A stretch of DNA of 64,000 nt from Bacteroidales bacterium (GTDB taxonomy: Bacteria > Bacteroidota > Bacteroidia > Bacteroidales > WCHB1-69). The translations under genes and the position numbers were made by a program. The notes under the pieces were generated by a model. The model was not told where the DNA came from. It searched no databases and saw nothing but the letters and a program-made list of their open reading frames with translations. This document shows positions 49,623 to 62,822 of this stretch, one piece after another (positions within the stretch are counted from its first letter, which is position 1; each line of letters begins with the position of its first letter). The DNA is taken from assembly GCA_016290295.1 (NCBI GenBank), contig JAEETJ010000002.1:79583-143582 (forward strand). Reading direction: 5' to 3'.

Positions 49623-50789
49623 ATGACAGAACTTTTACCTCTCGAAATGGCAAGCAATAAGTATAAGGACGATTTTGAAACAGTGTATGGCATCATTTCT
49701 GCCCATCGCAACCATGTCATACAGCAGGTCAACGGTGAAGCGGTGTTGATGGCATGGGAAGTGGGAGGGTTTGTTTTCAGCAAGTTGAAGACATCGGCAT
49801 GGGGTAGTGGTGTTGTCCGTCAGTTGGCTGAATACATCCATACACAGAACCCATCTGTGAGGGGTTGGAGCTACCGCTCCATATACAAGATGGTTCAGTT
49901 TTATGAAACCTATTCATTTCCGACATTTACCGAACTGATTGGCAAGGTCAAATCTCAAATTGTGCCAGTCGAAATGGCACAAATCCCCAATCAACAAATA
50001 ATGCCGATTCAATCGGCACAAATATTTTCTCAGACAATTGTGCCAATCCGATTGGCACAAATTCCCGACGTGCTGCTCTCTACAGGTTGGAGCAACCATC
50101 AGCTCATCTTGAACTACTGCAAGACGGATGAGCAACGACTGTTCTATATGCTGTATGCAGGTCGCGAACGATTGGAGTATAAAGAACTTGACCGTGCCAT
50201 CAAGACCGATGCGATGTCGGCCATCCTAGGTGGCCACGATGTACAATCGCAAGCGATGCAAACTCTGTATCCGCAGGCACCGCTACTATTCAAAGATCGT
50301 GTCAGTTTGGATATGCTTGGATTACCTCTTGATTACAAAGAAGCGAGGCTTCGCAAATCTATTATTGTGCACATGAAGGATTTTATATTGGAGATGGGCA
50401 AAGACTTCCTCTTCATTGACGAAGAGCATCGGCTTGTGGTAGGTGGTAAAACTTTTAAGGTTGATTTGTTGTTCTACCACAGGTTGTTGCAATGCATGGT
50501 TGCTATTGAGCTTAAAACATCAGAGTTCCAGCCCAGAGATCTCGGACAGTTGGAATTCTATCTTGAGGCTTTGGATCAGGAGGAACGTCGTTCCTGCGAG
50601 AATCCTAGCATTGGCATCCTGTTGTGTAAGGAAGCCAACATGGAGGTAGTGCGTTTCGCATTGAACCGAAGCATGTCGCCCACCATGGTGGCACAGTATA
50701 AAGAGCAGCTGCAGGTGGGAGGGGTAATACAGCGTAGTTTGGTCGAGTTTTGTAGATTTTTGGATAATGGTGGAAAGGTCGTGAAATAG
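49623..50789 (+). CDS. YhcG-family PDDEXK nuclease (DUF1016), copy 1
   Basis: N-terminal YhcG-like helical domain. C-terminal restriction-endonuclease-like core FKVDLLFYHRLLQCMVAIELKTSEF.PRDLGQLEFYL. Confidence 0.8.
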   Translation: MTELLPLEMASNKYKDDFETVYGIISAHRNHVIQQVNGEAVLMAWEVGGFVFSKLKTSAWGSGVVRQLAEYIHTQNPSVRGWSYRSIYKMVQFYETYSFPTFTELIGKVKSQIVPVEMAQIPNQQIMPIQSAQIFSQTIVPIRLAQIPDVLLSTGWSNHQLILNYCKTDEQRLFYMLYAGRERLEYKELDRAIKTDAMSAILGGHDVQSQAMQTLYPQAPLLFKDRVSLDMLGLPLDYKEARLRKSIIVHMKDFILEMGKDFLFIDEEHRLVVGGKTFKVDLLFYHRLLQCMVAIELKTSEFQPRDLGQLEFYLEALDQEERRSCENPSIGILLCKEANMEVVRFALNRSMSPTMVAQYKEQLQVGGVIQRSLVEFCRFLDNGGKVVK

Positions 50790-51725: not shown

Positions 51726-52589
51726 TTAATGCGTTATTTGATCTAAAGCTTTCTTCAATCGAGGACAATCTTCTATTTGTTCCCCAAAACTTGCTCCTGG
51801 GCCACCTCTCATAGAATACCATCCTTCTGTTGTTTTGTATGAAACATCCACGAACAAGGACTGCGACAACATCTGCATCAGATATTTGTAGGGCATGAGC
51901 AAAGTCTTAATGCCTCTTGCGGCATTTGTAGAATCGACATATACTTCATTTTCATATACAACATCCAGTACAGTATAAACACTATCATAAAAAGTGATTT
52001 GAATACTGTCCATCTGAAAATCTTCGTAGTTGGTGATGACAAAACTAGAAAGAGGTTCTTCGTCATCTTTCCCGATAGTCAGAATTATATTGGCAAAGTG
52101 CCAAGGAGCTTCCCAGGATCTGGGTATAACAGTGAAGCACATGAGTTCCACATCTGTAAAGGATACTGTTTGCCATTCCACAAAGCGTGAGATTGACTCA
52201 CCGGAACAATCGCATTGATAAACCCGGTCATCCTTCGATGCTAGCCTCCAGAAATTGGATGCTGTAGCCCGCATCATCAGGGTGAATTCAAATACAGAAT
52301 CATAGGCTATAACATTAGCCATTTGATCCAACATTCTGCATACCTGATTTGAATGGGCTTCAACAGATTGTGTGCTATCCTCCAAGAAATAATACACGGA
52401 ATCTATCAAATTGATAAGTGAGAGCCTTTGGCTGTCATTGATTTCATAATCTGCTGCCCAATTCCGCAGGAAATTTGGCCAACGAACTTCCCCGGTTTCT
52501 TCATCAGTCTTTTGGGGTGTGGCGCAAGCAGATAGTGCGATAGCGCAAAGGATGAAAATTGCTATTTGTTTGTACTTTAACTGTTTCAT
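51726..52589 (-). CDS. Lipoprotein of unknown function (same transcription unit as the ADP-ribosylglycohydrolase)
   Basis: Lipobox ILCAIALSAC. Own TACTTTTG -7 box upstream (about 52619-52626). It ends 13 nt before the ARH gene. Confidence 0.6.
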   Translation of the reverse strand: MKQLKYKQIAIFILCAIALSACATPQKTDEETGEVRWPNFLRNWAADYEINDSQRLSLINLIDSVYYFLEDSTQSVEAHSNQVCRMLDQMANVIAYDSVFEFTLMMRATASNFWRLASKDDRVYQCDCSGESISRFVEWQTVSFTDVELMCFTVIPRSWEAPWHFANIILTIGKDDEEPLSSFVITNYEDFQMDSIQITFYDSVYTVLDVVYENEVYVDSTNAARGIKTLLMPYKYLMQMLSQSLFVDVSYKTTEGWYSMRGGPGASFGEQIEDCPRLKKALDQITH

Positions 52590-52877
52590 TTTTGTTTTCG
52601 GTTTGAATTTTTTGCAAAAGTAGTTATTTTATTCGAGAATCACTTTGAAAGAGAAGCTTCTAAATCCCTCTTCTCTGAAGTTCACGGATTCTTTCTTGGA
52701 TTTCTTCTAACAGGTCTTGATTACTCTTAGTATCCGAAATGTTTTTGTCAATGTCACATGACCTCCCATCTACCAGGGAATATAGAAACTGTTTAATCTG
52801 ATTGAAAATGTTCATAAACTTGTATTTTTAAGGTTGAAAATTTTGTGTATTTTATGCAATGAATCTACAGATCACTC

Positions 52878-54959
52878 CTATTCTGTCGTGTTAATTCTTC
52901 GAACCCTTCGGCTAAATATCTGGAACTCTGTACTGTTTTTGTCTGCCTCATTAAGTATCTTTTCAAAGTCGCTGTCAGATACAGTTTTATTATTGAAAGC
53001 TACAACAATGGCATTTTTCTCTTCTTCCTCGTCCATCTCAACATGCAAATTGCTGGCAAGTGCTTCCTTCCGAATCATCATGTATGCGGGCAAGTACTCT
53101 GAACAGAGTTTTACCAAATGACGGCATGTTTCAATATTTGAATATCCAAGTTTCTGATTGAGTTGCGCTTCAAACAGGTATTGTTTTTTATCGATAGCAA
53201 TCTTCTCATCTGAATTGTTCGAAATTTCACGAATAAATTTGACCACACTGTCAGCTTCTTCGTATCGTTCCAAACGATACAGCGCTTTTGCCTTGACAAA
53301 CAGGGCTTCGAGACAGGGACTTTTTTTCTGTGCTGTCTTTTTGTCAAATACCATGTCCGAATATCCTATAGCTTCCTCATACCGGCCTTTGTAGAGGCAT
53401 AGCACCGCATTCAAAAAGTCACAAGTCATGCTGCAATCCTTTAGCAACGGGACATTCTTTGTAGCATCATGCAGACATTCATCGTCAAGCATCACATCGA
53501 ACATCCGTTTAGCTACGAGAGCTGCATTTCTATAGTCACCGCTCTTGATTTTGGCAACGACTTGTTTCATGCACACCTGAACAGCACCATCATAGTCATG
53601 CTTATAAAAATATGTGGAGAAATCCTTACCAAACTTGTACTCCTCATCTATCATGGGCACATCGTTAAACGAGTTGGCAAAAGCCCTGATCTCGGCATTC
53701 TGTTTGATATGATATGAGCGCAACTTGTTGCTCAATGTAAGTCCATCTAATGAACGCATACGGCTGATGGCTACATACGCCTGTCCAGGAGCAAATGTTC
53801 CTCGAGTCAAATCGAAATGCATACGGTCAAAAGTCATTCCCTGCGACTTATGTATCGTGATAGCCCAAGCCAGTTTCAAAGGATATTGTGTAAAACTTCC
53901 CACAACCTTCGATTCAACCTTTCGGGTATCCTCATTATATACACTTTCCTTGCTCTCCCACACCATCTTTTCCACTTTGAGTGTTTTGCCATTTTCCAGG
54001 ACCACAACAATTTTGTCATCGGTCAATTTAGTCACAATGGCAATGGTTCCATTCACCACACCTCTTGGATAATCGTTGCGGCAGAAGATTACCTGTGCAC
54101 CAACTTTCAGCTGCAGTTTAACCGGCACTGGCGCATCTTGCATCTTGAATTTTCCATCTAACTCCCCCTCATAACAGAATTCCTCCGCTTCTATCTCGTC
54201 TAACTTCATCTCATTAATGCTTTCAGCAATTCTATTATAAGCCGTCAGGGTAACCGAATAATCGCCAACTTTGTCATCAGAACTCACATGTTCATTAATG
54301 ATTTCAAAATCCTCTTGAATATTTTCTCCTACACGCATACGGTCTAAAACATCCAAAAAAGGCTGATCTTTCTGACGATAAACCTTCTGAAACTCTATCT
54401 TGGGCAGATTCATTCGTTTCAATGCGTACGCTTTGTAGAAATAAGGAGTTCCATTTCCATAAAAGTCTCGGAGCATATCTTCATCTGCCGTACCCTGCTT
54501 ATATACGGGTGGCAATTGAAATAAGTCGCCTACAAAAACAACCTGCTTGCCCCCGAAAGGTAAATGCGAATAAGTCAAAGTCCTGAGAAATCTATCCATA
54601 CCGTCCACCATATCGGCTCTTACCATCGAAGCCTCATCAATGATAATGGTATCTGTTTTCTCCAGCACGCGTCTTTTCTCTAACGACACTTCCATGTGGG
54701 TTGTAGGACCAATTATCTCCAATGGAAAGCCAAAGAAGGAATGCATAGTTTGACCTCCAACATTGAGTGCTGCTATGCCTGTGGGAGCAAGAACCAAAAA
54801 GTTCTTGTTGATTTCCTTTTGGATTCTCTTCACAAAAGTGGTTTTACCCGTACCAGCCTTCCCTGTGATGAAAAGACTGATGTTGGTATATGCCACAAGA
54901 TCGTATGCTTTCTGCTGCTCGAAGTTGGTTTTGTCGAATGCTATTTCTTTGTTTTCCAT
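52878..54959 (-). CDS. Pif1/RecD-family SF1B helicase with a roughly 250-aa TPR-like helical C-terminal extension
   Basis: FITGKAGTGKTTF (Walker A), LAPTGIAALNVGGQTMHSFFG, IIIDEASMV (Walker B), GDLFQLPPV, ITIHKSQGMTFD, AYVAISR. Start moved to MENKE (54959) because the longer ORF runs through the promoter module. Confidence 0.85.
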   Translation of the reverse strand: MENKEIAFDKTNFEQQKAYDLVAYTNISLFITGKAGTGKTTFVKRIQKEINKNFLVLAPTGIAALNVGGQTMHSFFGFPLEIIGPTTHMEVSLEKRRVLEKTDTIIIDEASMVRADMVDGMDRFLRTLTYSHLPFGGKQVVFVGDLFQLPPVYKQGTADEDMLRDFYGNGTPYFYKAYALKRMNLPKIEFQKVYRQKDQPFLDVLDRMRVGENIQEDFEIINEHVSSDDKVGDYSVTLTAYNRIAESINEMKLDEIEAEEFCYEGELDGKFKMQDAPVPVKLQLKVGAQVIFCRNDYPRGVVNGTIAIVTKLTDDKIVVVLENGKTLKVEKMVWESKESVYNEDTRKVESKVVGSFTQYPLKLAWAITIHKSQGMTFDRMHFDLTRGTFAPGQAYVAISRMRSLDGLTLSNKLRSYHIKQNAEIRAFANSFNDVPMIDEEYKFGKDFSTYFYKHDYDGAVQVCMKQVVAKIKSGDYRNAALVAKRMFDVMLDDECLHDATKNVPLLKDCSMTCDFLNAVLCLYKGRYEEAIGYSDMVFDKKTAQKKSPCLEALFVKAKALYRLERYEEADSVVKFIREISNNSDEKIAIDKKQYLFEAQLNQKLGYSNIETCRHLVKLCSEYLPAYMMIRKEALASNLHVEMDEEEEKNAIVVAFNNKTVSDSDFEKILNEADKNSTEFQIFSRRVRRINTTE

Positions 54960-54977
54960 ATTGGCGTGTTGTATTTT

Positions 54978-55023
54978 GTTTTCGGGTGCAAAAGTACAAC
55001 CGCCTCGCGCAACCAATTTGCGC
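54978..55023 (-). promoter_or_regulatory. Conserved promoter/operator module 'A' upstream of the Pif1-like helicase
   Basis: Minus strand: GCGCAAATTGGTTGCGCGAGGCGGTTGTACTTTTGCACCCGAAAAC. The palindrome GCGCAA-N5-TTGCGC lies 10 nt upstream of the TACTTTTG -7 box. 39/46 identical to module B. Confidence 0.7.
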
Positions 55024-55096
55024 AAAAATAAAAAGCACGGAATAACTTTTGGTGAAATTTGTATTATCTTTGCAAAAACCATAAAACCCAACAAAT

Positions 55097-55849
55097 ATGG
55101 AACCTTTCATGATATATTCCGGAAAACATGTATTTCACTTTACAAAATTCGAATCTGCGTTGAGAATCATTGCAACCCAATCCTTAAAGTTTGGCCGTTT
55201 TGAGAATATGAATGATATTGCAGAAGTGAAAAGAGAAGTTTATGGTATTATTTCTGCCGATATTATAGATAGTGAATTGTCAAAATATCAATCCATAAGT
55301 CTTACATTAGACAAGCCCTCGCACCGTGGCTTCAAAATTGACCCTCTATGGGGTCACTATGCACAAGGAGGTAATGGTGCATGTTTGGTTTTTGATAAAG
55401 ACAAGTTATCACAAAGGGTTGTTGAACAATTTGGTGAAAAAGCAAAAATTGCTCCAATCAATTACTTGCCTAATTTTTCAAATGCAATATTCACGGAGGG
55501 AGATTCTCAAGAAGCAGTAGAAAAATATATAGAAGATAATCTAGAGGACATTTTCTTCACCAAATCTCTTGACTGGGAATATGAACAAGAACTGAGGATC
55601 TTAATCAAAGAGGACAGGGAAAATGAGAAATACCTTTGTTGGGATGATGCATTAATTGCCGTTATACTTTGCCTGCCAAAAGTCATCAACTACAAAGAGT
55701 CGCCTGAATTCAGAATTATGAAATCCATGTTGCCGGCCATCCCTATTCTTAATTATACGACATCTTTGGGGAACAAAGAATTACTCGATGAGAACGGGGG
55801 AAAAGTGTGTGACATTATTGGTGAGGATTTACAAATACTCTTTGAATGA
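55097..55849 (+). CDS. DUF2971 family protein
   Basis: ..VFHFTKFESALRII....LKFGRFENMNDIAE..., ..DPLWGHYAQGGNGACLVFDK.., ..DWEYEQELRIL follow the DUF2971 pattern (lyhYt...., f.s....NDp.E, mWshYa....G.cl.F, EkEwR). Confidence 0.65.
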   Translation: MEPFMIYSGKHVFHFTKFESALRIIATQSLKFGRFENMNDIAEVKREVYGIISADIIDSELSKYQSISLTLDKPSHRGFKIDPLWGHYAQGGNGACLVFDKDKLSQRVVEQFGEKAKIAPINYLPNFSNAIFTEGDSQEAVEKYIEDNLEDIFFTKSLDWEYEQELRILIKEDRENEKYLCWDDALIAVILCLPKVINYKESPEFRIMKSMLPAIPILNYTTSLGNKELLDENGGKVCDIIGEDLQILFE

Positions 55850-55870
55850 GATATGTACTAAAAAAACTAT

Positions 55871-56860
55871 TTAATCTGCCAAATTAAACAATCGGTTAAT
55901 GCGGTTTTCTTTAGTTCCAAATCTTCTATGTTGGTATCTTCCCTCTTTTTGAGATTCTATTGACGTCTTTTTTATCCAATTGTAATAATCATCCGTATCA
56001 CCATTTTTATCCAATGTTGGTTGACAAATATGAAAATTACAATCTTTTTGAGCCTTTATTTCTCTTTCAACAGGGCCGAAAACACTAAAACCACCAGATG
56101 CCTCTATCATCAAATTGTTTGTCAAAACAAATCTGTCATGCCAACCTTCTCCTTGTGCTGGAATTTGATATAATGTAAAAGAAAAATCCAAATTAGGTCT
56201 GATATCTTTAAGCATTTCAAGTATTTCTTTGTAAAAGGAGAGCCCCAATTCTTCATTATCAAAATTGTTACCTCCAACTCCACTAAAAATAGAAATATCA
56301 AAAGGGATACTTAATGATTGAGGTAATATGTTTTTAAAAAGATGCTTTAAATGATATTGGATATACTTTCTATCATTCAAGATATGAGGATCTATAAGGA
56401 TAAGAGAATTACAGGGGATAGAAAAATACTCTTTTAATCCATAATAATCCCCTTTCTGATGAAATTTAAAATGTATTTTTTTCCCTGAAACGAGATGTTT
56501 ATTTCTCGATAGCATTTCCGCATTCAAGCTTAGTACACCTTTTTGTTGAGCAAACGTTTCACAATAACTCTGGTCTTTATCAAGCAAAAAGACTGAGCAT
56601 AATTTCTCAATGGAAAGACTATCGTCTTCAATTATTGCATCAATCTGCCCTTTTTCGGCAAAGCAACTTCCTCCGGTTTTATGCCATAAAATACTCAAAA
56701 AATCATCTTGGCCAAAATCCTCAATCGGTATTTCTGCTTGAACATTATTTGCTTGCAAGACACAGAATAAGTCCCATGCATTAGGACCAAAAATATCCAT
56801 GTCAAGTTTCTTTACAGCTTTCCAGAAACCGTATTGAAGAAAGATTTTTCCCCTTTTCAT
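55871..56860 (-). CDS. Protein with C-terminal MIT_C-like phospholipase-D-fold domain (HxR variant); candidate effector
   Basis: LILIDPHILNDRKYIQYHLKHLF ... FSFTLYQIP...GWHDRFVLTNNLMIEASGGFSVF parallels, from memory, the MITD1 C-terminal domain (IVDPYIRS.HQL.NFLRF ... [23 protein letters not shown]). The start overlaps the ATPase stop (ATGA). Confidence 0.6.
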   Translation of the reverse strand: MKRGKIFLQYGFWKAVKKLDMDIFGPNAWDLFCVLQANNVQAEIPIEDFGQDDFLSILWHKTGGSCFAEKGQIDAIIEDDSLSIEKLCSVFLLDKDQSYCETFAQQKGVLSLNAEMLSRNKHLVSGKKIHFKFHQKGDYYGLKEYFSIPCNSLILIDPHILNDRKYIQYHLKHLFKNILPQSLSIPFDISIFSGVGGNNFDNEELGLSFYKEILEMLKDIRPNLDFSFTLYQIPAQGEGWHDRFVLTNNLMIEASGGFSVFGPVEREIKAQKDCNFHICQPTLDKNGDTDDYYNWIKKTSIESQKEGRYQHRRFGTKENRINRLFNLAD

Positions 56861-58497
56861 TTTGCCTCCATCTTCATTTTTAACAAACGCATAGACAAAT
56901 CTGTCGCCTCATCAAAAAAACCTGGGCCAAATGGCTCATTCAACCGTCCGTCTTCAAGAACCTTTATCTGACGATTATGGGAAATACCTTCTTCATCTTT
57001 TTCCACATAATTGAGTGAAATGTCATTTGGCATAAGTACATTTTCTTTATCTGCAACCATCACCTGAAGTTTACGAATCAAATATTCGCTATGGGTTTCA
57101 ATGATGAAGTGGATATTGTATTTTTGAAATGCTTCCACAAACATATCGGCAAGAAGCGACTGATATTTTGGGTGGAGATGAATTTCGGGCTCTTCTACAC
57201 AAATGATTTGTTTTGGTTTGTTCCAATATCCTTTATGAGGCTTGCCTTTATACCAAGGAATTTCTATTTCATTTTCAATATTTTTTATGTCAGGTGATTT
57301 AATTGCATTGTCAATTAGCAACAATAAGGACACTAATTGAGTAATGCCATAACCTTCGTCTGCAAGCAACCTGTATTCTTTTTCTTTTTTTAGATATATT
57401 TTAACACCACCTTCCTCATCACCTTCTACACTAACTTTACCAAGATTAAACCTCTCTTTACCCAACCAACGATTCATAAAGCCACCAGGTTTATGATAAT
57501 ATGGATCGGCAGATAAAACATCGAAATGCTCCTCGAATGTTACTCGCATACTATTAAAAACGCACAGAGCATGGCTCATTTTATTGTCGTTCTCAACTGA
57601 ATATGAGCGTCGTATTGCTGCAGAATTCGAATCTATATATTTTACATTACAAGTAAACCAAGGGGAATATACTTCATTTGTGACTAATTCAAAAAAATGT
57701 TCTATAATTATGCCTTTTGGAAAATATTTATCCATCATTTCCTCCATCTCTTCATCAGTCTTACAGTATTTCTTCCATTCTTCAATATCACTATTCCGTT
57801 TATCAATCCATTCATACCAGTTATTTAGAAGTTTAATATTATAATCTTCTATATTGATTTTATTTTCTTCTAATTGCTTTCTGGTATTTTCCAAATCACG
57901 AGTTAACCTTAATGCAACTGACGTGTTCTCATATTTTTTGTATAAATCTTTCTTGAATACTTCAATGCCTCTGATCAATTTAAGATACTGGCTTGCCAAT
58001 GAGAAGTTGTTGAAATTTTGAGTGATGTTTTCTTTGTATATTTTTTTATTTCCGATTCCTCTTGGTGTTGTGTCTTTTTCAAGAATAATACTTCCATCAA
58101 TTTTTTCAATCGTATATCTACAAAGATGCCCATCATTAAGAGTATCAGCTTTCTTGCTTTTGAAATATCGCCTGACATATACTTCTTCTTGAAGATAATT
58201 AGACCATATTTTATATGAAATTTCTATCTCATTACTATTTGCCTGTTTGTGTAATACTTTCTTAAAATTGCCGAGGTCAAGGTCTTTTGAATACAATTTG
58301 AGAGCTGTATGTATAGTCTCTTTTTCATGTGGCAATTTGCTCAATAGCATAAGAGCTTTTGTCATAGAACTCTTCCCTGCACTATTGCATCCTGTCAGTA
58401 CGGTGATAGGGGCAAGTTCAAAATCTGCACCGTCTTCACCAAATGAGCGAAAGTTTTTCAAACTAAAAACTGGGTTCATGTTTTTATTATTGTTCAT
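56857..58497 (-). CDS. ABC-type (AAA_15/AAA_21-like, OLD/PtuA/AriA-like) ATPase with DUF3696-like C-terminal tail
   Basis: LKNFRSFG...ITVLTGCNSAGKSS (Walker A), long K/E-rich helical insertion, DEGYGITQLVSLLLL (signature-like), IICVEEPEIHLHP (Walker B/D-loop), IIETHSEYLIRKLQ (H-loop), C-terminal ..GRLNEPFGPGFFDE. Start moved to the ATG at 58497. Confidence 0.85.
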   Translation of the reverse strand: MNNNKNMNPVFSLKNFRSFGEDGADFELAPITVLTGCNSAGKSSMTKALMLLSKLPHEKETIHTALKLYSKDLDLGNFKKVLHKQANSNEIEISYKIWSNYLQEEVYVRRYFKSKKADTLNDGHLCRYTIEKIDGSIILEKDTTPRGIGNKKIYKENITQNFNNFSLASQYLKLIRGIEVFKKDLYKKYENTSVALRLTRDLENTRKQLEENKINIEDYNIKLLNNWYEWIDKRNSDIEEWKKYCKTDEEMEEMMDKYFPKGIIIEHFFELVTNEVYSPWFTCNVKYIDSNSAAIRRSYSVENDNKMSHALCVFNSMRVTFEEHFDVLSADPYYHKPGGFMNRWLGKERFNLGKVSVEGDEEGGVKIYLKKEKEYRLLADEGYGITQLVSLLLLIDNAIKSPDIKNIENEIEIPWYKGKPHKGYWNKPKQIICVEEPEIHLHPKYQSLLADMFVEAFQKYNIHFIIETHSEYLIRKLQVMVADKENVLMPNDISLNYVEKDEEGISHNRQIKVLEDGRLNEPFGPGFFDEATDLSMRLLKMKMEAK

Positions 58498-58511
58498 ATT
58501 CTTCTTTGTTT

Positions 58512-58557
58512 GTTTTCGTTTGCAAAAGTACAACCTTCTTGCGCAACTTATTTGCGC
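58512..58557 (-). promoter_or_regulatory. Conserved promoter/operator module 'B' upstream of the ATPase operon (overlaps the YhcG-2 stop codon)
   Basis: Minus strand: GCGCAAATAAGTTGCGCAAGAAGGTTGTACTTTTGCAAACGAAAAC, with the same palindrome and spacing as module A. Confidence 0.7.
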
Positions 58558-59750
58558 GAATTTTCTTTTTTCTTTTGCTCCAACTCTTTTACCGTGCGCT
58601 CCACCACTTCTTCCAGTTGATAAGTGGATACGCCAAGAGGTTTGTTGATGTCACGCAGAGACCATTCCACAACGGTTTTGTCAGTTGATTTGCAAATAAG
58701 CAAACCCACAGTTGGATTGTCACCGTCGCCACGCATCAACTCGTCGATAGCAGTCACATAGAAATTCAGTTTGCCGGCAAATTCGGGGATGAATTTCACC
58801 ACCTTTAATTCGACGACAACATAACGGTGCTGGGGTATGTGATAGAATAGCAAGTCGGGGAAGAAAGTCTGACCTCCGGGCATTTGCAGCTCCATCTGAC
58901 GGCCCACATACGAAAAGCCCTGGCCTAACTCCATCAGAAATCGTGTAACATTGGATACCAACGCATCTTCTAGGTCCTGTTCCTCGTATTCTTCTCCCAT
59001 GGAGAGAAATTCAAAATGGTAGGGATCTTTCAGCAGCTCTTTGGCCAATTGGCTCTGTGGAGCAGGTAGTGTATGCTCGAAGTTAGTAAGTGCTGCACCT
59101 TGACTTCCGAATAGATTGGCTGCCACTTGGGCTTCAAGTCTGCTGCGACTCCAGCCCTCTTCCACAACCTTGTTAATATAGAACATAGCCTCATCAAGAG
59201 ACTGGCATTTGGAGATAATCAGAATATGACAGCCCCATGGTATAAGACCAAATGTATCAGGAAATTGCAATTGGCCAACGACTTGTTGACCTTTTTCGTC
59301 AACAGTTTGTTGACGATTTGCAGTTTCTAATTCGTCAACAACTTGTTGACGAATTTCAACATCTTGATTATCACCCGTCTTGGATGCTAAAGCAATACCA
59401 AATTCGTCACCAACTTGGGGACGAATTGCAAATCTTTCACTATAAAATGCATACCAACGTTTCATGTATTTGAGGTTGGTTACAGAGAAACCTTTTTCGT
59501 TGGGAAATGCCGTTTTCAAATCAAGACACAACTGATTAAAGAAGCCATTTCCCCATTTGCTTTCAGCACGAAGTTCAACTATGTCGCGTCCTAAGCTCCA
59601 ATAAAACTCAAGCATGGCAGTGTTTACACGGACCGCCGCTTTTACTTGGCTTTGGCGAAAACGCTGCTTGATGTCAGCCATCCATTGTACGTAACCTTCG
59701 TCGGTGGTCATTTCTTCTCGGAATATAAATGTTGGTTTTTCATTCATCAT
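58548..59750 (-). CDS. YhcG-family PDDEXK nuclease (DUF1016), copy 2
   Basis: N-terminal ..VNTAMLEFYWSLGRDIV...WG.GFFNQL..DLK..FP..KGFS..NL.YM..WY. C-terminal FFPDLLFYHIPQHRYVVVELKVVKF.PEFAGKLNFYV. Start set at the ATG at 59750 (TATTTTTG box upstream). Confidence 0.8.
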   Translation of the reverse strand: MMNEKPTFIFREEMTTDEGYVQWMADIKQRFRQSQVKAAVRVNTAMLEFYWSLGRDIVELRAESKWGNGFFNQLCLDLKTAFPNEKGFSVTNLKYMKRWYAFYSERFAIRPQVGDEFGIALASKTGDNQDVEIRQQVVDELETANRQQTVDEKGQQVVGQLQFPDTFGLIPWGCHILIISKCQSLDEAMFYINKVVEEGWSRSRLEAQVAANLFGSQGAALTNFEHTLPAPQSQLAKELLKDPYHFEFLSMGEEYEEQDLEDALVSNVTRFLMELGQGFSYVGRQMELQMPGGQTFFPDLLFYHIPQHRYVVVELKVVKFIPEFAGKLNFYVTAIDELMRGDGDNPTVGLLICKSTDKTVVEWSLRDINKPLGVSTYQLEEVVERTVKELEQKKKENSRK

Positions 59751-59789
59751 TATTAAAGAATTTGTGAAGTGCAAAAATACAAATAAATT

Positions 59790-60860
59790 CTATTTCAAGG
59801 AGTGATATGCTTGAAGTTGTGCTGCCACATAATCTTTTACCTTCTGTTGTATATTGGTAGGAGAAAGTACAATCAAGTCTTTGCCAAATGAGGTCAATTC
59901 CCTGATAAGTTCATAATTCTCGATGCATTCAATGGAAAAGAAGGCCCCACCTTTCAACATTGGATACTGACGACGCAGTTCAGCTTCTTTTTCATCATGA
60001 AAGGGTCGTGTAGGTTGAGATTCGTGTATTGGTTTTGTAATAACGTAATTCTTGGAATAATCACTTACCCAGAAGATAATGGTTTGCAATGGCCTGTCAT
60101 CATAAAGAGATACACCTATAATATCCTCAAAGCGTTCATTCAGATTACCGGGGTATGGGATATATCGATGATTTGATAGCATATCGAATTGGTCAATCTG
60201 GTCCAACCTGAAATTTAGTAATCTACCAGAGTCCTCTGCGGAACCAAAGAGATACCATCTGCGATTGTACTCTTTCAATAAGTGAGGATGAATAATCACC
60301 TGTTTTACATTGTCGAGGTCATCAAAAGTATGATAATGCAACTTCAGCACCTGTCGTTGCGAAATAGCGGTAAAAAGTTCCCCGAACAGAGTGGTTTTCT
60401 CTAAAGGATTCTTGGTAAAGGAAACGATTTGGCGCTTTTCTTTAAGATTCAAGCTGCCTTTCAACTTTTCCAGTCCGTCAAGATTTGGAAGACCGTCAAA
60501 CTGTCCCAGCAACGACAATGCTTCCGAAAGCAGATACTTCTCATCCTCGGTCAATGGCTTCTTGAAAATAGAGAATGATGGGTCTTTATAACGCAAACAT
60601 TCTTTTTTCACCGTGAGATTTGGATTCTTTTGGCTGACCGCATCAATTTGATAATGCTCAATATCTGCAAGAAAGGGGCCCGCTTTTTCTATATAGTTGA
60701 TGTCATATTGGATTGTGCGAATGCTGACTTTCATTTTCCTCTCTTCTAATTCTTCATTCACCAATTCACATATATCGGCAACAGAATAGTTCCTATATCG
60801 ATTGGCAAGCAACTTGTCAATGATGTAATATCGCGTAACGGCGTTTTTGTTGGCTGGCAT
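59790..60860 (-). CDS. WYL-domain transcriptional regulator (wHTH-WYL-WCX; BrxR/CapW-like architecture)
   Basis: N-terminal HTH (..YSVADICELVNEEL....VSIRTIQYDINYIE), WYL core (VLKLHYHTF.....VIIHPHLLKEYNRRWYLFG) and a C-terminal extension. Confidence 0.8.
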   Translation of the reverse strand: MPANKNAVTRYYIIDKLLANRYRNYSVADICELVNEELEERKMKVSIRTIQYDINYIEKAGPFLADIEHYQIDAVSQKNPNLTVKKECLRYKDPSFSIFKKPLTEDEKYLLSEALSLLGQFDGLPNLDGLEKLKGSLNLKEKRQIVSFTKNPLEKTTLFGELFTAISQRQVLKLHYHTFDDLDNVKQVIIHPHLLKEYNRRWYLFGSAEDSGRLLNFRLDQIDQFDMLSNHRYIPYPGNLNERFEDIIGVSLYDDRPLQTIIFWVSDYSKNYVITKPIHESQPTRPFHDEKEAELRRQYPMLKGGAFFSIECIENYELIRELTSFGKDLIVLSPTNIQQKVKDYVAAQLQAYHSLK

Positions 60861-60890
60861 GATTGTGGTTTTATTGTGATTGTTCTTGTT

Positions 60891-60936
60891 TTTTTTGTTT
60901 GCAAAAGTACGACCGCCTTGTGCAACCTATTTGCGT
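60891..60936 (-). promoter_or_regulatory. Conserved promoter/operator module 'C' upstream of the WYL regulator gene
   Basis: Minus strand: ACGCAAATAGGTTGCACAAGGCGGTCGTACTTTTGCAAACAAAAAA. Same layout as A and B with slightly degenerate half-sites. A second palindrome, TATGTAT-N9-ATACATA (60938-60961), lies just upstream. Confidence 0.65.
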
Positions 60937-61156
60937 GATATGTATTTTGCAAAGATACATATTATTTCCGAAATAATTGATAACACTGGAGAGAAAGTCC
61001 TGATTTGTCGCATATAGATACAAGTATTTAAGCATATTTCTTCCAAAAATTCCAGCTGCTATCCTCAAGTTTGAGAAGCGTGGGAAAATTTTACCTCTCG
61101 ATTCAACGCTATTTTCTGTTCGAAAAAATCATCTTTTCGAACGAAATTTGTAATTT

Positions 61157-61230
61157 CTTATAATGTTGATTTTGAGATGATTAACAATGTTTTGTCCCAT
61201 GATATTAAGAATTGGGTGTTGTATTTTTGC
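61157..61230 (+). promoter_or_regulatory. Conserved promoter module 'D', copy 2 (74 nt)
   Basis: cttataatgttgattttgagatgattaacaatgttttgtcccatgatattaagaattgggtgttgtatttttgc. About 80% identical to 61866-61938. TATTTTTG box at 61222-61229. Confidence 0.65.
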
Positions 61231-61259
61231 GGGCAAAAACAATTTCAAATATTAATACT

Positions 61260-61643
61260 ATGGAAAAAAAATTACTCATAGAAGTCGAAAAAAAGATTAT
61301 CACCGTCAGAAACAAGAAGGTGATTTTAGATTCAGATGTTGCGGAGCTGTATGACGTTTTAACCAAGGAAATCAATCAAGGGGTTAGCAATAACCCTGAA
61401 AAATTTCCAGAAGGGTATGTTTTTGAATTGACTGAAGACGAGAAAAACGAGGTGGTCAAAAATTTTGACCACCTCCAAAAACTCAAGTTTTCACCACAAT
61501 TGCCAAAGGCTTTCACCGAAAAAGGCCTCTATATGCTGGCTACAATCTTGAAAAGTGACCAGGCAGTGGACACTACCATCGCCATAGTGGAGGCTTACGC
61601 AAAATTAAAGGAATTGTCGCGAGTGATTGTTGAAGTCCCGTAA
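61260..61643 (+). CDS. ORF6N (KilA-N-like) DNA-binding domain protein, possibly truncated
   Basis: IITVRNKKVILDSDVAELYDV.TKEINQGVSNNPEKFPEGYVFELT..E......LPKAFTEKGLYMLATILKSDQAV is the ORF6N consensus. Start moved to the ATG at 61260 because the listed TTG lies in the promoter module. Confidence 0.8.
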   Translation: MEKKLLIEVEKKIITVRNKKVILDSDVAELYDVLTKEINQGVSNNPEKFPEGYVFELTEDEKNEVVKNFDHLQKLKFSPQLPKAFTEKGLYMLATILKSDQAVDTTIAIVEAYAKLKELSRVIVEVP

Positions 61644-61865
61644 CAAGAAGACAACAGTACGGAGCAACAGTTCTTGTTGCATTGAGGCGGGCAATTAGTG
61701 GAGGATATCATGGGCGACATCTTACCTAAACAGAGTAGCGAGACTTCCTTTGAGCTGAACTTGGCGATGTTTAAGTTCAAGCATTCTGTGAAAAGGGAAA
61801 ATGATGAGGAAATCAAGCAGTTGAAGGCTAAATTAGCAGAATTGGAGAAGAAAGTTAGATAATAT

Positions 61866-61938
61866 CTTATAATGTTGATTTTTAGATGATTAATAATATT
61901 TAGCCCTCGGTTTTAAGAATTGGGTGTTCTATTTTTGC
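61866..61938 (+). promoter_or_regulatory. Conserved promoter module 'D', copy 3 (73 nt)
   Basis: cttataatgttgatttttagatgattaataatatttagccctcggttttaagaattgggtgttctatttttgc. TATTTTTG box at 61930-61937. Confidence 0.65.
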
Positions 61939-61964
61939 AAGACAATCATTCAATAACTACACAA

Positions 61965-62822
61965 ATGGAAAATAGTATTGTATTAAATCAAAATAATGGT
62001 GAAATCATTTTCTACCAGCCTGACAATAATATACGTCTGGAAGTGATGTTGCGAGAAGATACGGTGTGGCTTAATCGACAACAGATTGCCGAGTTGTTTC
62101 ATAGGGACATCAAGACTATAGGTAAACACATACAAAATGCCAATGCGGAAGAATTAAAAGGAATTCCAACTGTCGCAAAATTTGCGACAGTTCAACAAGA
62201 GGGTAATCGTCTAATAAACAGAGAAATAGAATATTTTAATTTAGATATGATTATATCTGTGGGGTATCGTGTTAAATCAAAACAAGGGATTCTCTTTCGT
62301 CAATGGGCAAATGCTGTTCTTAAGGAATACCTGTTGCGTGGATATGTTATCAACCAAAGAGTAGAACAGTTGGAGCAGCGAGTTGCTAAAACGGAAGAGC
62401 AAATTGGTTTCTTTGTTCGCACTGCATTGCCTCCCGTTGAGGGCGTTTTTTACGACGGACAGGTCTTTGATGCCTACACCTTTGTGGCAGATTTGATACG
62501 CTCGGCTCATGAACGAGTCGTCTTCATCGACAACTATGTGGACGATTCGGTATTGAAGACTCTCACCAAACGGAATGAAGGAGTTAGTTCCAAAATCATT
62601 ACCCGAAAGATATCGGAAACATTGCAGGTGGATTTAGAACGCCACAACCGACAGTACTCATCAATAGACATCAACACTTCCGACCGTTACCATGATCGAT
62701 TCCTCATTATTGATAACACAGTCTATCATCTTGGAGCCTCCCTCAAAGATTTGGGCAAGAAACTTTTCGCATTCAATAAGATGGAGGTGCTCGCAGAAGA
62801 AATTATCTCTTTTGCCAGCTGA
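61965..62822 (+). CDS. RhuM-family protein with C-terminal degenerate PLD-like (HxR) motif
   Basis: ..VAKFATVQQEGNRLINREIEYFNLDMIISVGYRVKSKQGILFRQWANAVLKEYLLRGYVIN is the RhuM core. The C-terminal YHDRFLIIDNTVYHLGASLKDLGKK resembles HxK-x4-D-x6-G with R replacing K. Start moved to the ATG at 61965. Confidence 0.85.
   Translation: MENSIVLNQNNGEIIFYQPDNNIRLEVMLREDTVWLNRQQIAELFHRDIKTIGKHIQNANAEELKGIPTVAKFATVQQEGNRLINREIEYFNLDMIISVGYRVKSKQGILFRQWANAVLKEYLLRGYVINQRVEQLEQRVAKTEEQIGFFVRTALPPVEGVFYDGQVFDAYTFVADLIRSAHERVVFIDNYVDDSVLKTLTKRNEGVSSKIITRKISETLQVDLERHNRQYSSIDINTSDRYHDRFLIIDNTVYHLGASLKDLGKKLFAFNKMEVLAEEIISFAS

Follow-up and report, generated by a model that had tools for sequence, protein, structure and literature searches.

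A recurrent palindrome-promoter module beside a WYL protein points to a putative regulon over a Bacteroidales defence island

Three nearly identical sequences of 46 nt precede three separate transcription units in the window (the whole 64-kb stretch of DNA analysed here), and they raise the question of whether they are merely promoters or the operators of the WYL-domain protein encoded beside them, and, if operators, whether that protein activates or represses. All three lie on the minus strand where the initial annotation had placed them (Table 1), with 39 of 46 positions identical by hand count between copies A and B, as first described, and 38 of 46 between B and C. Each module consists of a 17-base palindrome of the form 6-N5-6, then exactly 10 nt, then a TAnnTTTG -7 box. 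A 6+6 inverted repeat at this distance had been claimed for every copy; the spacing holds in all of them, but the repeat is perfect only in copies B (GCGCAA-ATAAG-TTGCGC, 58541-58557) and A (GCGCAA-ATTGG-TTGCGC, 55007-55023), and in copy C (ACGCAA-ATAGG-TTGCAC, 60920-60936) four of the six arm pairs remain. The ATG lies 29, 25 and 41 nt downstream of the box in modules A, B and C, respectively, matching the range of 25-41 nt given earlier, and all three modules carry the -7 element and the ATG distance of promoters for the Bacteroidota primary sigma factor. The flanks of the TACTTTTG boxes (ttG...CA) agree with the local promoter consensus. Other promoters of the window share the -7 box alone, as had been stated: TAnnTTTG by itself occurs 91 times in the 64 kb, whereas a search with the 24-nt promoter half of the module that tolerated as many as 3 mismatches recovered modules A-C and nothing else, and shuffled sequence gave no match. 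Module B overlaps the end of the YhcG gene (...TCG CGC AAA TAA), another detail of the annotation that proved correct; the stop codon sits in the palindrome spacer, and the same overlap is seen again in related loci.

Table 1. Features of the island and its promoter modules (positions in the window)
Feature	Position	Strand	Remarks
Module C (P1), putative promoter-operator of the WYL gene	60891..60936	-	ATG at 60860
Module B (P2), putative promoter-operator of the cargo slot	58512..58557	-	ATG at 58497
Module A (P3), putative promoter-operator of the Pif1 helicase gene	54978..55023	-	ATG at 54959
-7 boxes TACTTTTG	60902-60909 (C), 58523-58530 (B), 54989-54996 (A)	-	
Second -7 box TATCTTTG, without operator	60950..60957	-	13 nt upstream of palindrome C
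wHTH-WYL-WCX transcription factor, 356 aa	59790..60860	-	Recognition helix VSIRTIQYDINY; WYL motif RRWYLF
YhcG-2, YhcG/DUF1016 PD-(D/E)XK nuclease family	58548..59750	-	Second gene of the WYL unit
AAA_15/AAA_21 ATPase, C-terminal DUF3696	56857..58497	-	First cargo gene; Pfam
ATPase partner, 329 aa	55871..56860	-	Start overlaps ATPase stop
DUF2971 gene	55097..55849	+	Divergent from Pif1; Pfam DUF2971 1e-10, PADLOC PDC-S31
Pif1-family SF1B helicase, 693 aa, C-terminal extension	52878..54959	-	Pfam PIF1 9e-34

YhcG-2 is recognised by Pfam (YhcG_C, 6.6e-54; DUF1016_N, 1e-32) and by PADLOC (PDC-S02, 2e-133), and a YhcG gene after the WYL gene recurs in a subset of the related loci. The ATPase has PADLOC matches to NsnB (4e-40), PDC-M55A (1e-33) and AriA (4e-22), and its homologues stand behind the module in 10 related loci; the 329-aa partner, which has no match in Pfam, PADLOC or NCBIfam, is found together with the ATPase in 9 loci. 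The helicase shares its type with the Bacteroides Pif1 whose crystal structure is known (PDB 5FHD/5FTB, E 1e-85; 8BNV, 9e-102), and orthologues that are 65-98% identical close the island in related loci.

The module is not peculiar to the window. In dozens of genomes and metagenomes of Bacteroidales, two to four copies per locus lie beside WYL homologues. When any 6-N5-6 palindrome with at most one mismatch upstream of a -7 box was counted across the window and the related loci (699 kb), a palindrome-to-box gap of 10 nt was observed in 84 cases, compared with 2-14 cases for each other gap from 0 to 30 nt; there is no excess at gaps of 9 or 11 nt, and none of the approximately 90 module sites departs from the 10-nt register. 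The pairing of palindrome and -7 box is far beyond chance. Under a strict definition, 70 sites were counted in 40 genome loci of WYL relatives, all of them (100%) on the WYL strand, with at least two such sites in 26 of 41 loci and none in shuffles of these loci. The consensus of the palindrome is GCG[C/A]A[A/C]-N5-[G/T]T[G/T]CGC, in which CG at positions 2-3 and 15-16 is almost invariant; the 5 nt at the centre are conserved as well, with an asymmetric sequence that is oriented relative to the promoter. In the 10-nt spacer before the box, sequence is randomised and length is fixed.

With this spacing, 19 nt separate the centre of the palindrome from the TA of the downstream -7 box, and the centre falls near -31 to -33. 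The -33 region is the usual seat of sigma region 4. A -33 element (TTTG some 19-20 nt upstream of -7) is absent from the modules, and its place is taken by the A-rich left arm and the spacer of the palindrome; TTG at a spacing of 19-20 nt occurs in 0 of 69 module promoters, although only about 15% of ordinary promoters in these loci have it. Over the same spacer positions the ordinary promoters in these loci are strongly A/T-rich, and the GC content of the spacers in the module promoters is 48% for P2, 59% for P3 and 29% for P1. The -7 box of the module with its flanks, ttGTAnnTTTGCA, is closer to consensus than that of ordinary promoters.

The islands in which the module is found occur in many rumen and gut Bacteroidales and usually follow the order module-WYL(+second gene)-module-variable cargo-module-Pif1 helicase. 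The cargo varies (e.g., ATPase pairs, retron reverse transcriptases, a GHKL pair, DUF3825), and WYL is the only gene shared by all related loci. In some of them a type XI-like retron reverse transcriptase lies directly downstream of the WYL gene; the window itself contains no retron. The module stands at the orthologous position upstream of WYL homologues in at least 20 loci. Twelve genome loci, L161 and several loci from metagenomes have it ahead of the Pif1 orthologue as well, and the P2 module (..GTTGTAyTTTTGCAAACGAAAA) is kept regardless of the upstream or downstream gene. A minimal locus of the form WYL-DUF3825-Pif1, fetched independently, carries three modules amid housekeeping genes. 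In the literature that could be searched, such a WYL-module island appears to be undescribed in Bacteroidota.

The WYL protein itself has 1804 homologues. Its Pfam WYL domain (PF13280) scores 45.6 bits (E 7e-12; cutoff 21.8); the WCX match (E 7.7e-4, 20.2 bits) falls under its cutoff of 23.9, and WCX is recorded for many homologues. The AF2 model (pLDDT 75) has three N-terminal helices and a beta wing, followed by a C-terminal alpha/beta domain, and W202-Y203-L204 are conserved across 36 homologues. The initial annotation had drawn on regulators of the BrxR/CapW type, a group to which this protein does not belong. The BrxR family is defined by homology at E below 1e-5 (PMC9122601), and the RWHVR version of the WYL motif is conserved across CapW/BrxR repressors (PMC11662680). 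The family profile gave E-values of 0.033 and 0.17 for BrxR and 0.042 for CapW against 1.1e-5 for PafB/PafC, and phmmer matched neither BrxR nor CapW. RWHVR is replaced in the window protein and in 35 of 35 aligned homologues by RRWYL, after which comes F, I, L or V, with no second arginine. What the WYL gene does share with the BrxR/CapW group is a promoter that carries an inverted repeat and a place among defence genes.

Evidence connecting this protein to the palindrome comes from the half-site, which differs by clade (GCGCAA, GCGAAA or GCGAAC). The recognition-helix residue at the position of Y52 in the window protein tracks these changes (K with GCGAAC, L with GCGAAA, and Y, N or S with GCGCAA) across lineages that are 26-94% identical to the window protein, a covariation based on perhaps three to four independent switches. 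Hybrid sites (GCGAAA...TTGCGC) also exist, so specificity would be loose. The recurrence of the module, its constant placement on the WYL strand, its linkage to WYL and the covariation of helix and half-site together support an autoregulated WYL regulon over the three units of the island, as first suggested; whatever the sign of control, these sequence patterns make such a regulon very probable.

In the mechanism that we propose, the 17-bp palindrome would be the DNA site of the adjacent WYL protein, bound as a homodimer with one recognition helix per arm, and this operator would form part of a portable promoter some 46 nt long, at a distance of 10 nt from the Bacteroidota -7 box. The module would head the WYL-YhcG unit, the ATPase with its 329-aa partner, and Pif1, giving across Bacteroidales a frame of P1-WYL-(second gene)-P2-interchangeable defence cargo-P3-Pif1. 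By analogy with all WYL factors studied, the WYL domain probably senses ssDNA from phage replication or DNA damage, in which case the entire island would answer one signal. Held at a fixed register over -33, the WYL factor may help RNA polymerase at promoters that lack a -33 element and have an unusually GC-rich spacer, and P1, with its normal AT-rich spacer, would give basal amounts of the regulator. Taken as a whole (an operator of the WYL protein in a portable promoter, ssDNA sensing and DriD-like positive control), this proposal is tentative, a little less than evenly balanced.

Regarding the sign of control, the comparison with known systems leans slightly towards activation by the WYL protein, triggered by ssDNA, although the call is close to even. 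The best fold and profile matches are DriD of Caulobacter and PafBC of mycobacteria, which are similar in length and about 15% identical to the window protein; Foldseek ranked PafBC (4e-13) and DriD (1e-11) before BrxR (5e-9) and CapW (6e-8), all with full-length alignments of 350-380 columns. DriD binds as a homodimer to a palindrome over -35 at an identical distance from -10 in every regulated promoter, these promoters have no -35 motif, and the regulon comprises multiple promoters (PMC13004042). The corresponding arrangement here, a site over the -35 equivalent at an identical distance from the -10 equivalent, is found at 84 sites. The systems nevertheless differ: the targets of DriD and PafBC are DNA-damage genes scattered on the chromosome rather than an island of defence genes in one place, the palindrome of DriD spans 20 bp (17 bp here), PafBC is a heterodimer with a non-palindromic site, and their promoter grammar is -10/-35 with another sigma factor in place of the Bacteroidota -7/-33. 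The lean to activation follows from the closer profile and fold, the RRWYL rather than RWHVR motif and the fixed -33 register, from the GC-rich spacers of the target promoters P2 and P3 where ordinary promoters are A/T-rich, and from the oriented, asymmetric central 5 nt and a spacing in which a change of 1 nt is never tolerated.

Repression by the same protein, acting on the same regulon, is a serious and only slightly less probable alternative. An apo WYL dimer at -33 would repress the three units, including its own gene, and would also cover +1 of an occasional upstream promoter; ssDNA would release the dimer and induce the island. BrxR of E. fergusonii pEFER and Acinetobacter is likewise a wHTH-WYL-WCX factor heading a defence island; it binds its own promoter at an inverted repeat whose arms are 5 bp apart, and the island contains a further box (PMC9122601). 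BrxR homologues accompany many different defence systems (PMC9122601); 97% of them come from Proteobacteria, and none has been reported in Bacteroidota. CapW, the CBASS-associated repressor, shares the domain architecture and binds a palindromic site in the promoter of its immune operon; ssDNA, which releases it, makes expression of the immune genes respond to DNA damage or to the induction of a prophage (PMC11662680). All WYL factors so far tied to defence (BrxR and CapW) repress (PMC9122601, PMC11662680), and the setting here is also that of a defence island, given the PADLOC matches of YhcG, the ATPase and DUF2971 and the retron or other cargo in relatives. A module on the regulator's own promoter is typical of autorepression, and a -7 consensus above average suits promoters needing restraint over help.

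Tandem promoters point the same way. Transcripts from the TATCTTTG box would start at or just before palindrome C, and the arrangement with an upstream box at 13 nt is also present in L002 and L008. Such upstream -7 boxes put the palindrome at about +1 for window copies C and A and in L002, L008 and L023, where binding could only repress the upstream promoter. As read from the sequences, an upstream -7 box also occurs at the equivalent place in L004 and L032, and both loci keep the palindrome though the downstream box has decayed. Against repression, a steric block needs no invariant 10-nt register, the RWHVR motif of CapW and BrxR (PMC11662680) is missing, activators rank first in the profile and fold searches, and the GC-rich target spacers and the oriented, asymmetric centre of the palindrome are left unexplained. 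The repressors also differ in layout: the arms of BrxR boxes are 11 bp long and its box lies downstream of -10 without a fixed register, whereas each locus here has 2-4 sites, all at one fixed position in the promoter, and the window protein is about 65 aa longer than BrxR; CapW acts at a single divergent promoter region, and its fold and profile similarity is weaker than that of the activators.

Extending the activation reading, the module could be a standard defence 'socket' in which the -33 element is replaced by the site of a DriD/PafBC-like, ssDNA-activated WYL activator and the cargo at P2 (retrons, ATPase-effector pairs, GHKL pairs or DUF3825) is interchangeable, an unlikely version. 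P3-Pif1 would then be the fixed partner, the helicase might feed the signal by unwinding DNA, and an alarm signal would switch the island on instead of merely de-repressing it. If true, it would be the first case of anti-phage systems governed by an activator, and the operator would offer a way to search gut and rumen Bacteroidota for new defence genes.

It is highly improbable that the module is simply a strong and often-copied group promoter, or the site of an unlinked factor, with WYL proximity a by-product of the island. The -7 part is indeed that of a general Bacteroidota promoter, and the site counts come from loci and metagenome contigs rather than complete genomes, so that additional distant sites are possible. 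In metagenomes a WYL-family ORF lies in the locus for 16 of the 24 sites with adequate flanks, leaving about one third without a WYL gene in the available DNA; many WYL-less metagenome matches are GC-rich chance matches. For ten strict sites of the genome loci and the window, the distance to the downstream WYL gene exceeds 200 nt; judged from the gene maps, most of these are operon promoters, with WYL as a later gene of the operon. The other 58 kb of the window holds no module, and a half-site that changes with the recognition helix of the only universally shared neighbour is not expected of a generic promoter. The initial annotation had proposed that occurrence before unrelated genes would mark the module as generic, and this was not borne out in the loci and metagenomes surveyed, where sites are linked to WYL genes.

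Least probable of all is that the palindrome is no protein operator but an RNA or ssDNA hairpin (terminator or stabiliser), in which symmetric base changes would merely keep the stem paired, or a recombination site at cassette borders: a 6-bp stem is possible, module B lies at the 3' end of YhcG, homology between loci starts and stops at the module borders with different cargo behind the same module, and the hybrid left and right arms resemble recombination products, but folding energies are unremarkable (z from -0.4 to -1.3, the best fold of copy C having no hairpin), no T-run follows the stem, arm sequence is conserved beyond pairing (the near-invariant CG), the frequent hybrid sites would put an A-G mismatch in the stem, a same-strand upstream gene is missing for P1 and P3, and the fixed distance to the -7 box and the covariation with the WYL helix are unexplained.

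The WYL loci described here also have a partial counterpart in the 'TXI_C2like' retrons of Bacteroidota, in which a WYL protein is paired with a type XI-like reverse transcriptase, as in some of the related loci; the consulted passages of the preprint report this pairing only in Bacteroidota, note that the WYL protein matches PafB/PafC structures, and treat it as a retron accessory without describing an operator (bioRxiv 10.64898/2026.05.14.725207). Unlike in that account, WYL and the module here also head non-retron cargo and Pif1. On the opposite strand, the DUF2971 gene has a -7 box at 55065-55072, which places palindrome A 41 nt upstream of that box, and the same divergent arrangement is also present in L004, L014 and L017.

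Three closely similar 46-nt promoter-operator modules lie on the minus strand of the window, each consisting of a palindrome with two 6-nt arms (half-sites) around a 5-nt spacer, a further 10 nt, and a -7 box (TAnnTTTG). Reading the sequence directly places modules A, B and C exactly where the initial annotation had put them, and a hand count reproduces its 39 of 46 positions shared by A and B and gives 38 of 46 for B and C. Its description of a 6-N5-6 inverted repeat in every copy stands, the repeat being perfect in A and B and imperfect in C, in which 4 of the 6 arm positions pair. In all three modules the TACTTTTG -7 box begins exactly 10 nt past the inverted repeat and the ATG follows 29, 25 or 41 nt past the box (A, B and C, respectively), as described. 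Other promoters in the window do share the -7 box only: the promoter half of the module (up to three mismatches) matches just three places in 64 kb and none in shuffled sequence, compared with 91 matches to the -7 box alone. The reported overlap of module B with the end of YhcG-2, the second gene of the WYL unit, is also real, the YhcG stop codon lying inside the spacer of palindrome B. Module B also gave a match to a further, overlapping palindrome (GCGCAA-GAAGG-TTGTAC, two mismatches); the lack of conservation at positions 18-24 across module sites shows that it is not general, and it was rejected. The divergent DUF2971 gene has its -7 box at 55065-55072 (plus strand), and palindrome A lies 41 nt upstream of that box (region 55007-55072), so a factor bound to the palindrome could also affect the DUF2971 promoter; the related loci L004, L014 and L017 show the same divergent pairing of DUF2971 and Pif1. 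Upstream of the gene after Pif1 (52589) is a plain promoter with no palindrome.

Modules and genes of the island in the window
Feature	Position	Strand	Matches and remarks
Module C (P1, WYL gene)	60936-60891	-	
Module B (P2, cargo slot)	58557-58512	-	
Module A (P3, Pif1 gene)	55023-54978	-	
WYL-domain protein	59790-60860	-	
YhcG/DUF1016 nuclease-family protein (YhcG-2)	58548-59750	-	
AAA_15/DUF3696 ATPase	56857-58497	-	PADLOC NsnB, PDC-M55A, AriA-like
329-aa partner of ATPase	55871-56860	-	without any family match
DUF2971 protein	55097-55849	+	
Pif1 helicase, crystallised Bacteroides type	52878-54959	-	5FHD, E 1e-85

The region is a defence island adjoining housekeeping genes, flanked by genes for ORF6N, RhuM, an ADP-ribosylglycohydrolase, a second YhcG protein and RNase HII; an NCBIfam search of the island proteins added no names. 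Both YhcG/DUF1016 genes contain in-frame perfect palindromes within an insertion in the N-terminal domain, encoding IRQQVVDE-like repeats: AATTCGTCAACAA-C-TTGTTGACGAATT at 59329-59355 plus three related copies in YhcG-2 (59260-59431), and TTGTGCCAATC-C-GATTGGCACAA at 50038-50060 plus one related copy in YhcG-1 (50002-50062). Some 500 nt upstream of module C, the ORF called as ORF6N contains a strong terminator-like hairpin (61449-61475, minus strand; 12-bp stem, GAGGTGGTCAAAATTTTTGACCACCTC then a T-run).

The WYL protein has 1804 homologues at E <= 1e-5, the best 120 of which are 65-94% identical to it, and a genome scan yielded 40 loci, mainly from rumen and gut Bacteroidales but also from Prevotella and Muribaculum. 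In these loci the same palindrome and -7 box precede most full-length WYL genes, and extra module copies occur downstream on the same strand. In an unbiased count over 699 kb, in which any 6-N5-6 palindrome with at most one mismatch was scored before any TAnnTTTG at gaps of 0-30 nt, 84 cases fell at a gap of 10 versus 2-14 at each other gap. A strict definition of the module returned 70 sites, all on the WYL strand (shuffles, 0), with at least two in 26 of 41 loci. No genuine palindrome is free-standing: a -7 box, sometimes decayed, follows at +10 in each case. The resulting logo reads G-C-G-[A/C]-A-[A/C]-A-T-A-G-R-[T/G]-T-[T/G]-C-G-C, 10 unconserved nt, TAnnTTTGCA and a CGAAAA box. The ttG...CA flanks of the -7 box are a general promoter feature of these genomes; the CGAAAA box, 5-10 nt past the -7 box at positions 40-45 from the palindrome start (e.g., 58513-58518), is module-specific, being kept in module promoters but not in their ordinary counterparts from those loci, and is followed by an unusually A-rich leader that is likewise conserved in module promoters; transcription is expected to start in the A-run 12-17 nt past the TA of the -7 box. 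The constancy of the CGAAAA box while the half-site varies among clades led to its rejection as a third half-site and probably marks it as a start-site or leader feature. Decay products also occur: L014 (14120) keeps a Pif1 promoter module, its -7 box mutated, and lacks the Pif1 gene; in L017 (14642) an intact module is followed by a Pif1 fragment of 78 aa; and in L039 (10001-10153) a 51-aa remnant of WYL stands ahead of a YhcG gene and a module that has degenerated. L005 and L031, whose WYL islands are typical of the Bacteroidales type, bear the labels 'Candidatus Limiplasma sp.' and 'Lactococcus garvieae', respectively, and are probably mis-binned contigs rather than evidence of transfer to Firmicutes.

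Gene maps show that the WYL gene is the sole gene common to all loci. In an alignment of 36 homologues, extended to 73, one recognition-helix residue (Y52 in the window motif VSIRTIQYD) tracks the half-site: K accompanies GCGAAC...GTTCGC, L accompanies GCGAAA...TTTCGC, and Y, N or S accompanies GCGCAA...TTGCGC. Independent switches are few, perhaps 3-4, and hybrid sites occur; the pattern is compatible with direct read-out of the palindrome by the WYL protein. TGCGCAA-N5-TTGCGCA palindromes 10 nt from a -7 box are also found beside more distant WYL proteins, which share 24-39% identity with that of the window and have the helix VSRRTFQND (L046, L059, L060, L064, L076, L094, L116, L144, L159); the WYL gene is sometimes divergent from the site. 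The design therefore covers a broader range of Bacteroidota-like WYL families. Direct sequence matching to solved structures failed (phmmer against the PDB gave nothing significant), and the protein was placed by family profile and fold search. The profile ranks PafB/PafC (1.1e-5) and PafBC (8e-4) ahead of BrxR and CapW (0.03-0.17), and Foldseek with an AF2 model (pLDDT 75; full-length alignments) gives E-values of 4e-13 for PafBC, 1e-11 for DriD, 5e-9 for BrxR and 6e-8 for CapW. CapW/BrxR repressors conserve RWHVR (PMC11662680), whereas the window protein has RRWYL instead. By the tests run, the window protein is a wHTH-WYL-WCX factor but no member of the BrxR/CapW family, the type of WYL regulator to which the initial annotation appealed.

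As to the direction of control, there is about an even chance that the WYL factor activates the module promoters. Pointing this way are the 10-nt register, which is invariant though the spacer sequence is randomised; the conserved, oriented and asymmetric central spacer of the palindrome; the lack of a -33 TTG in module promoters; the GC-rich spacers of the target promoters P2 (48%) and P3 (59%), P1 having 29% GC and ordinary promoters being AT-rich over the same positions; and the greater closeness of the protein to the activators. Repression, slightly less likely, would fit the defence-island context with BrxR and CapW as precedents, the above-average -7 consensus of module promoters, and the presence of the module at the promoter of the regulator itself. 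An upstream -7 box sets the palindrome at about +1 in 5 of 98 sites, among them modules C and A of the window, and in L004 and L032 the palindrome is kept despite a decayed downstream box, both of which also favour repression. An RNA hairpin or terminator is a weak alternative and was rejected as the main function: palindrome folds are ordinary in energy (z-scores -0.4 to -1.3), copy C forms none, no T-run follows the stem, hybrid arms would break it, and the arm sequence itself is conserved; an Rfam search of window positions 52000-62000 matched no family, with only spurious miRNA-hairpin matches on a palindrome inside YhcG. The palindrome was also rejected as hiding a -33 element, its right-arm TTG being 13 nt from the -7 box; TTG enrichment in ordinary promoters occurs only at 19-20 nt. 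A metagenome scan for palindrome and box returned at least 120 stretches, many of the GC-rich ones chance matches. A generic promoter, the outcome that the initial annotation had set against its own reading, was rejected, as the window holds no further copy, ordinary promoters share ttGTAnnTTTGCA only, and, over the related loci and metagenome stretches covered, sites are confined to WYL loci, a WYL-family ORF being present in the same locus at 16 of the 24 TTTGC-type metagenome sites with an upstream flank of 3 kb or more and a downstream flank of 1.5 kb or more, among the matches listed.

ORF clustering and gene maps reveal a recurrent frame, P1-WYL, P2-cargo and P3-Pif1, conserved across Bacteroidales, Prevotella and Muribaculum loci. 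P1 heads WYL and a variable second gene (YhcG, AAA_14-like ATPase, DUF4062-HATPase_c_4 or other). The P2 cargo is the ATPase and 329-aa partner in 10 loci, a retron-type reverse transcriptase and partner in 15 (PADLOC RT-Protease_XI, ~1e-100), and elsewhere a GHKL pair or DUF3825; P3 heads Pif1 in 12 loci (65-98% identity). The Prevotella and Muribaculum-type loci have a module-headed gene for a 900-970-aa protein first and WYL second, and a separately fetched 604-kb contig carries a minimal form, WYL-DUF3825-Pif1, with three modules amid housekeeping genes. The P2 module is kept irrespective of either neighbour, with homology running from the palindrome to just past GCAAACGAAAA, indicating that the module itself is the conserved unit behind which cargo is swapped.

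WYL regulators heading defence islands (BrxR, CapW) and ssDNA-activated WYL activators (DriD, PafBC) are already known. To our knowledge, little has been established about how phage-defence genes are regulated in Bacteroidota, the dominant phylum of gut and rumen. We likewise know the Bacteroides-type Pif1 helicase mainly as a structural and biochemical model, and the island offers it a physiological context, as a putatively alarm-regulated, island-associated enzyme. The case described here is probably a WYL regulon that acts locally on several promoters, in a phylum and a promoter grammar both new to such regulators; the predicted regulon is distinguished by its fixed-register site, exchangeable cargo slot and conserved Pif1 partner. 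The finding supplies a defined cis-element that is open to testing, together with the factor that probably acts on it. Through guilt by association, the operator can also point to unknown defence genes, examples being the 329-aa partner, DUF3825, the GHKL pair and the 900-aa beta-propeller-like proteins. If the factor is an activator at fixed register, the DriD mechanism would be extended to a different sigma/promoter grammar and to immunity. A survey of BrxR reported no Bacteroidota homologues (PMC9122601), and a literature search for WYL regulators in Bacteroidales (Bacteroides, Prevotella, Porphyromonas) found no study. The accessible part of a May 2026 preprint places WYL genes beside Bacteroidota type XI-like retrons and mentions neither an operator nor a wider island frame (bioRxiv 10.64898/2026.05.14.725207); the module may provide a regulatory context for these retrons. 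Where relatives carry a retron, about 250-330 nt without any ORF separate the module from the ATG of the reverse transcriptase downstream, and the module probably drives the retron non-coding RNA; an Rfam search of the L034 retron leader matched no family. Retron or tandem-module loci comprise L033, L034, L035, L036 and L038 (e.g., L034 11296-11620), and L006, L013, L019, L022 and L023; in Muribaculum-type loci, two tandem modules lie ~230 nt apart.
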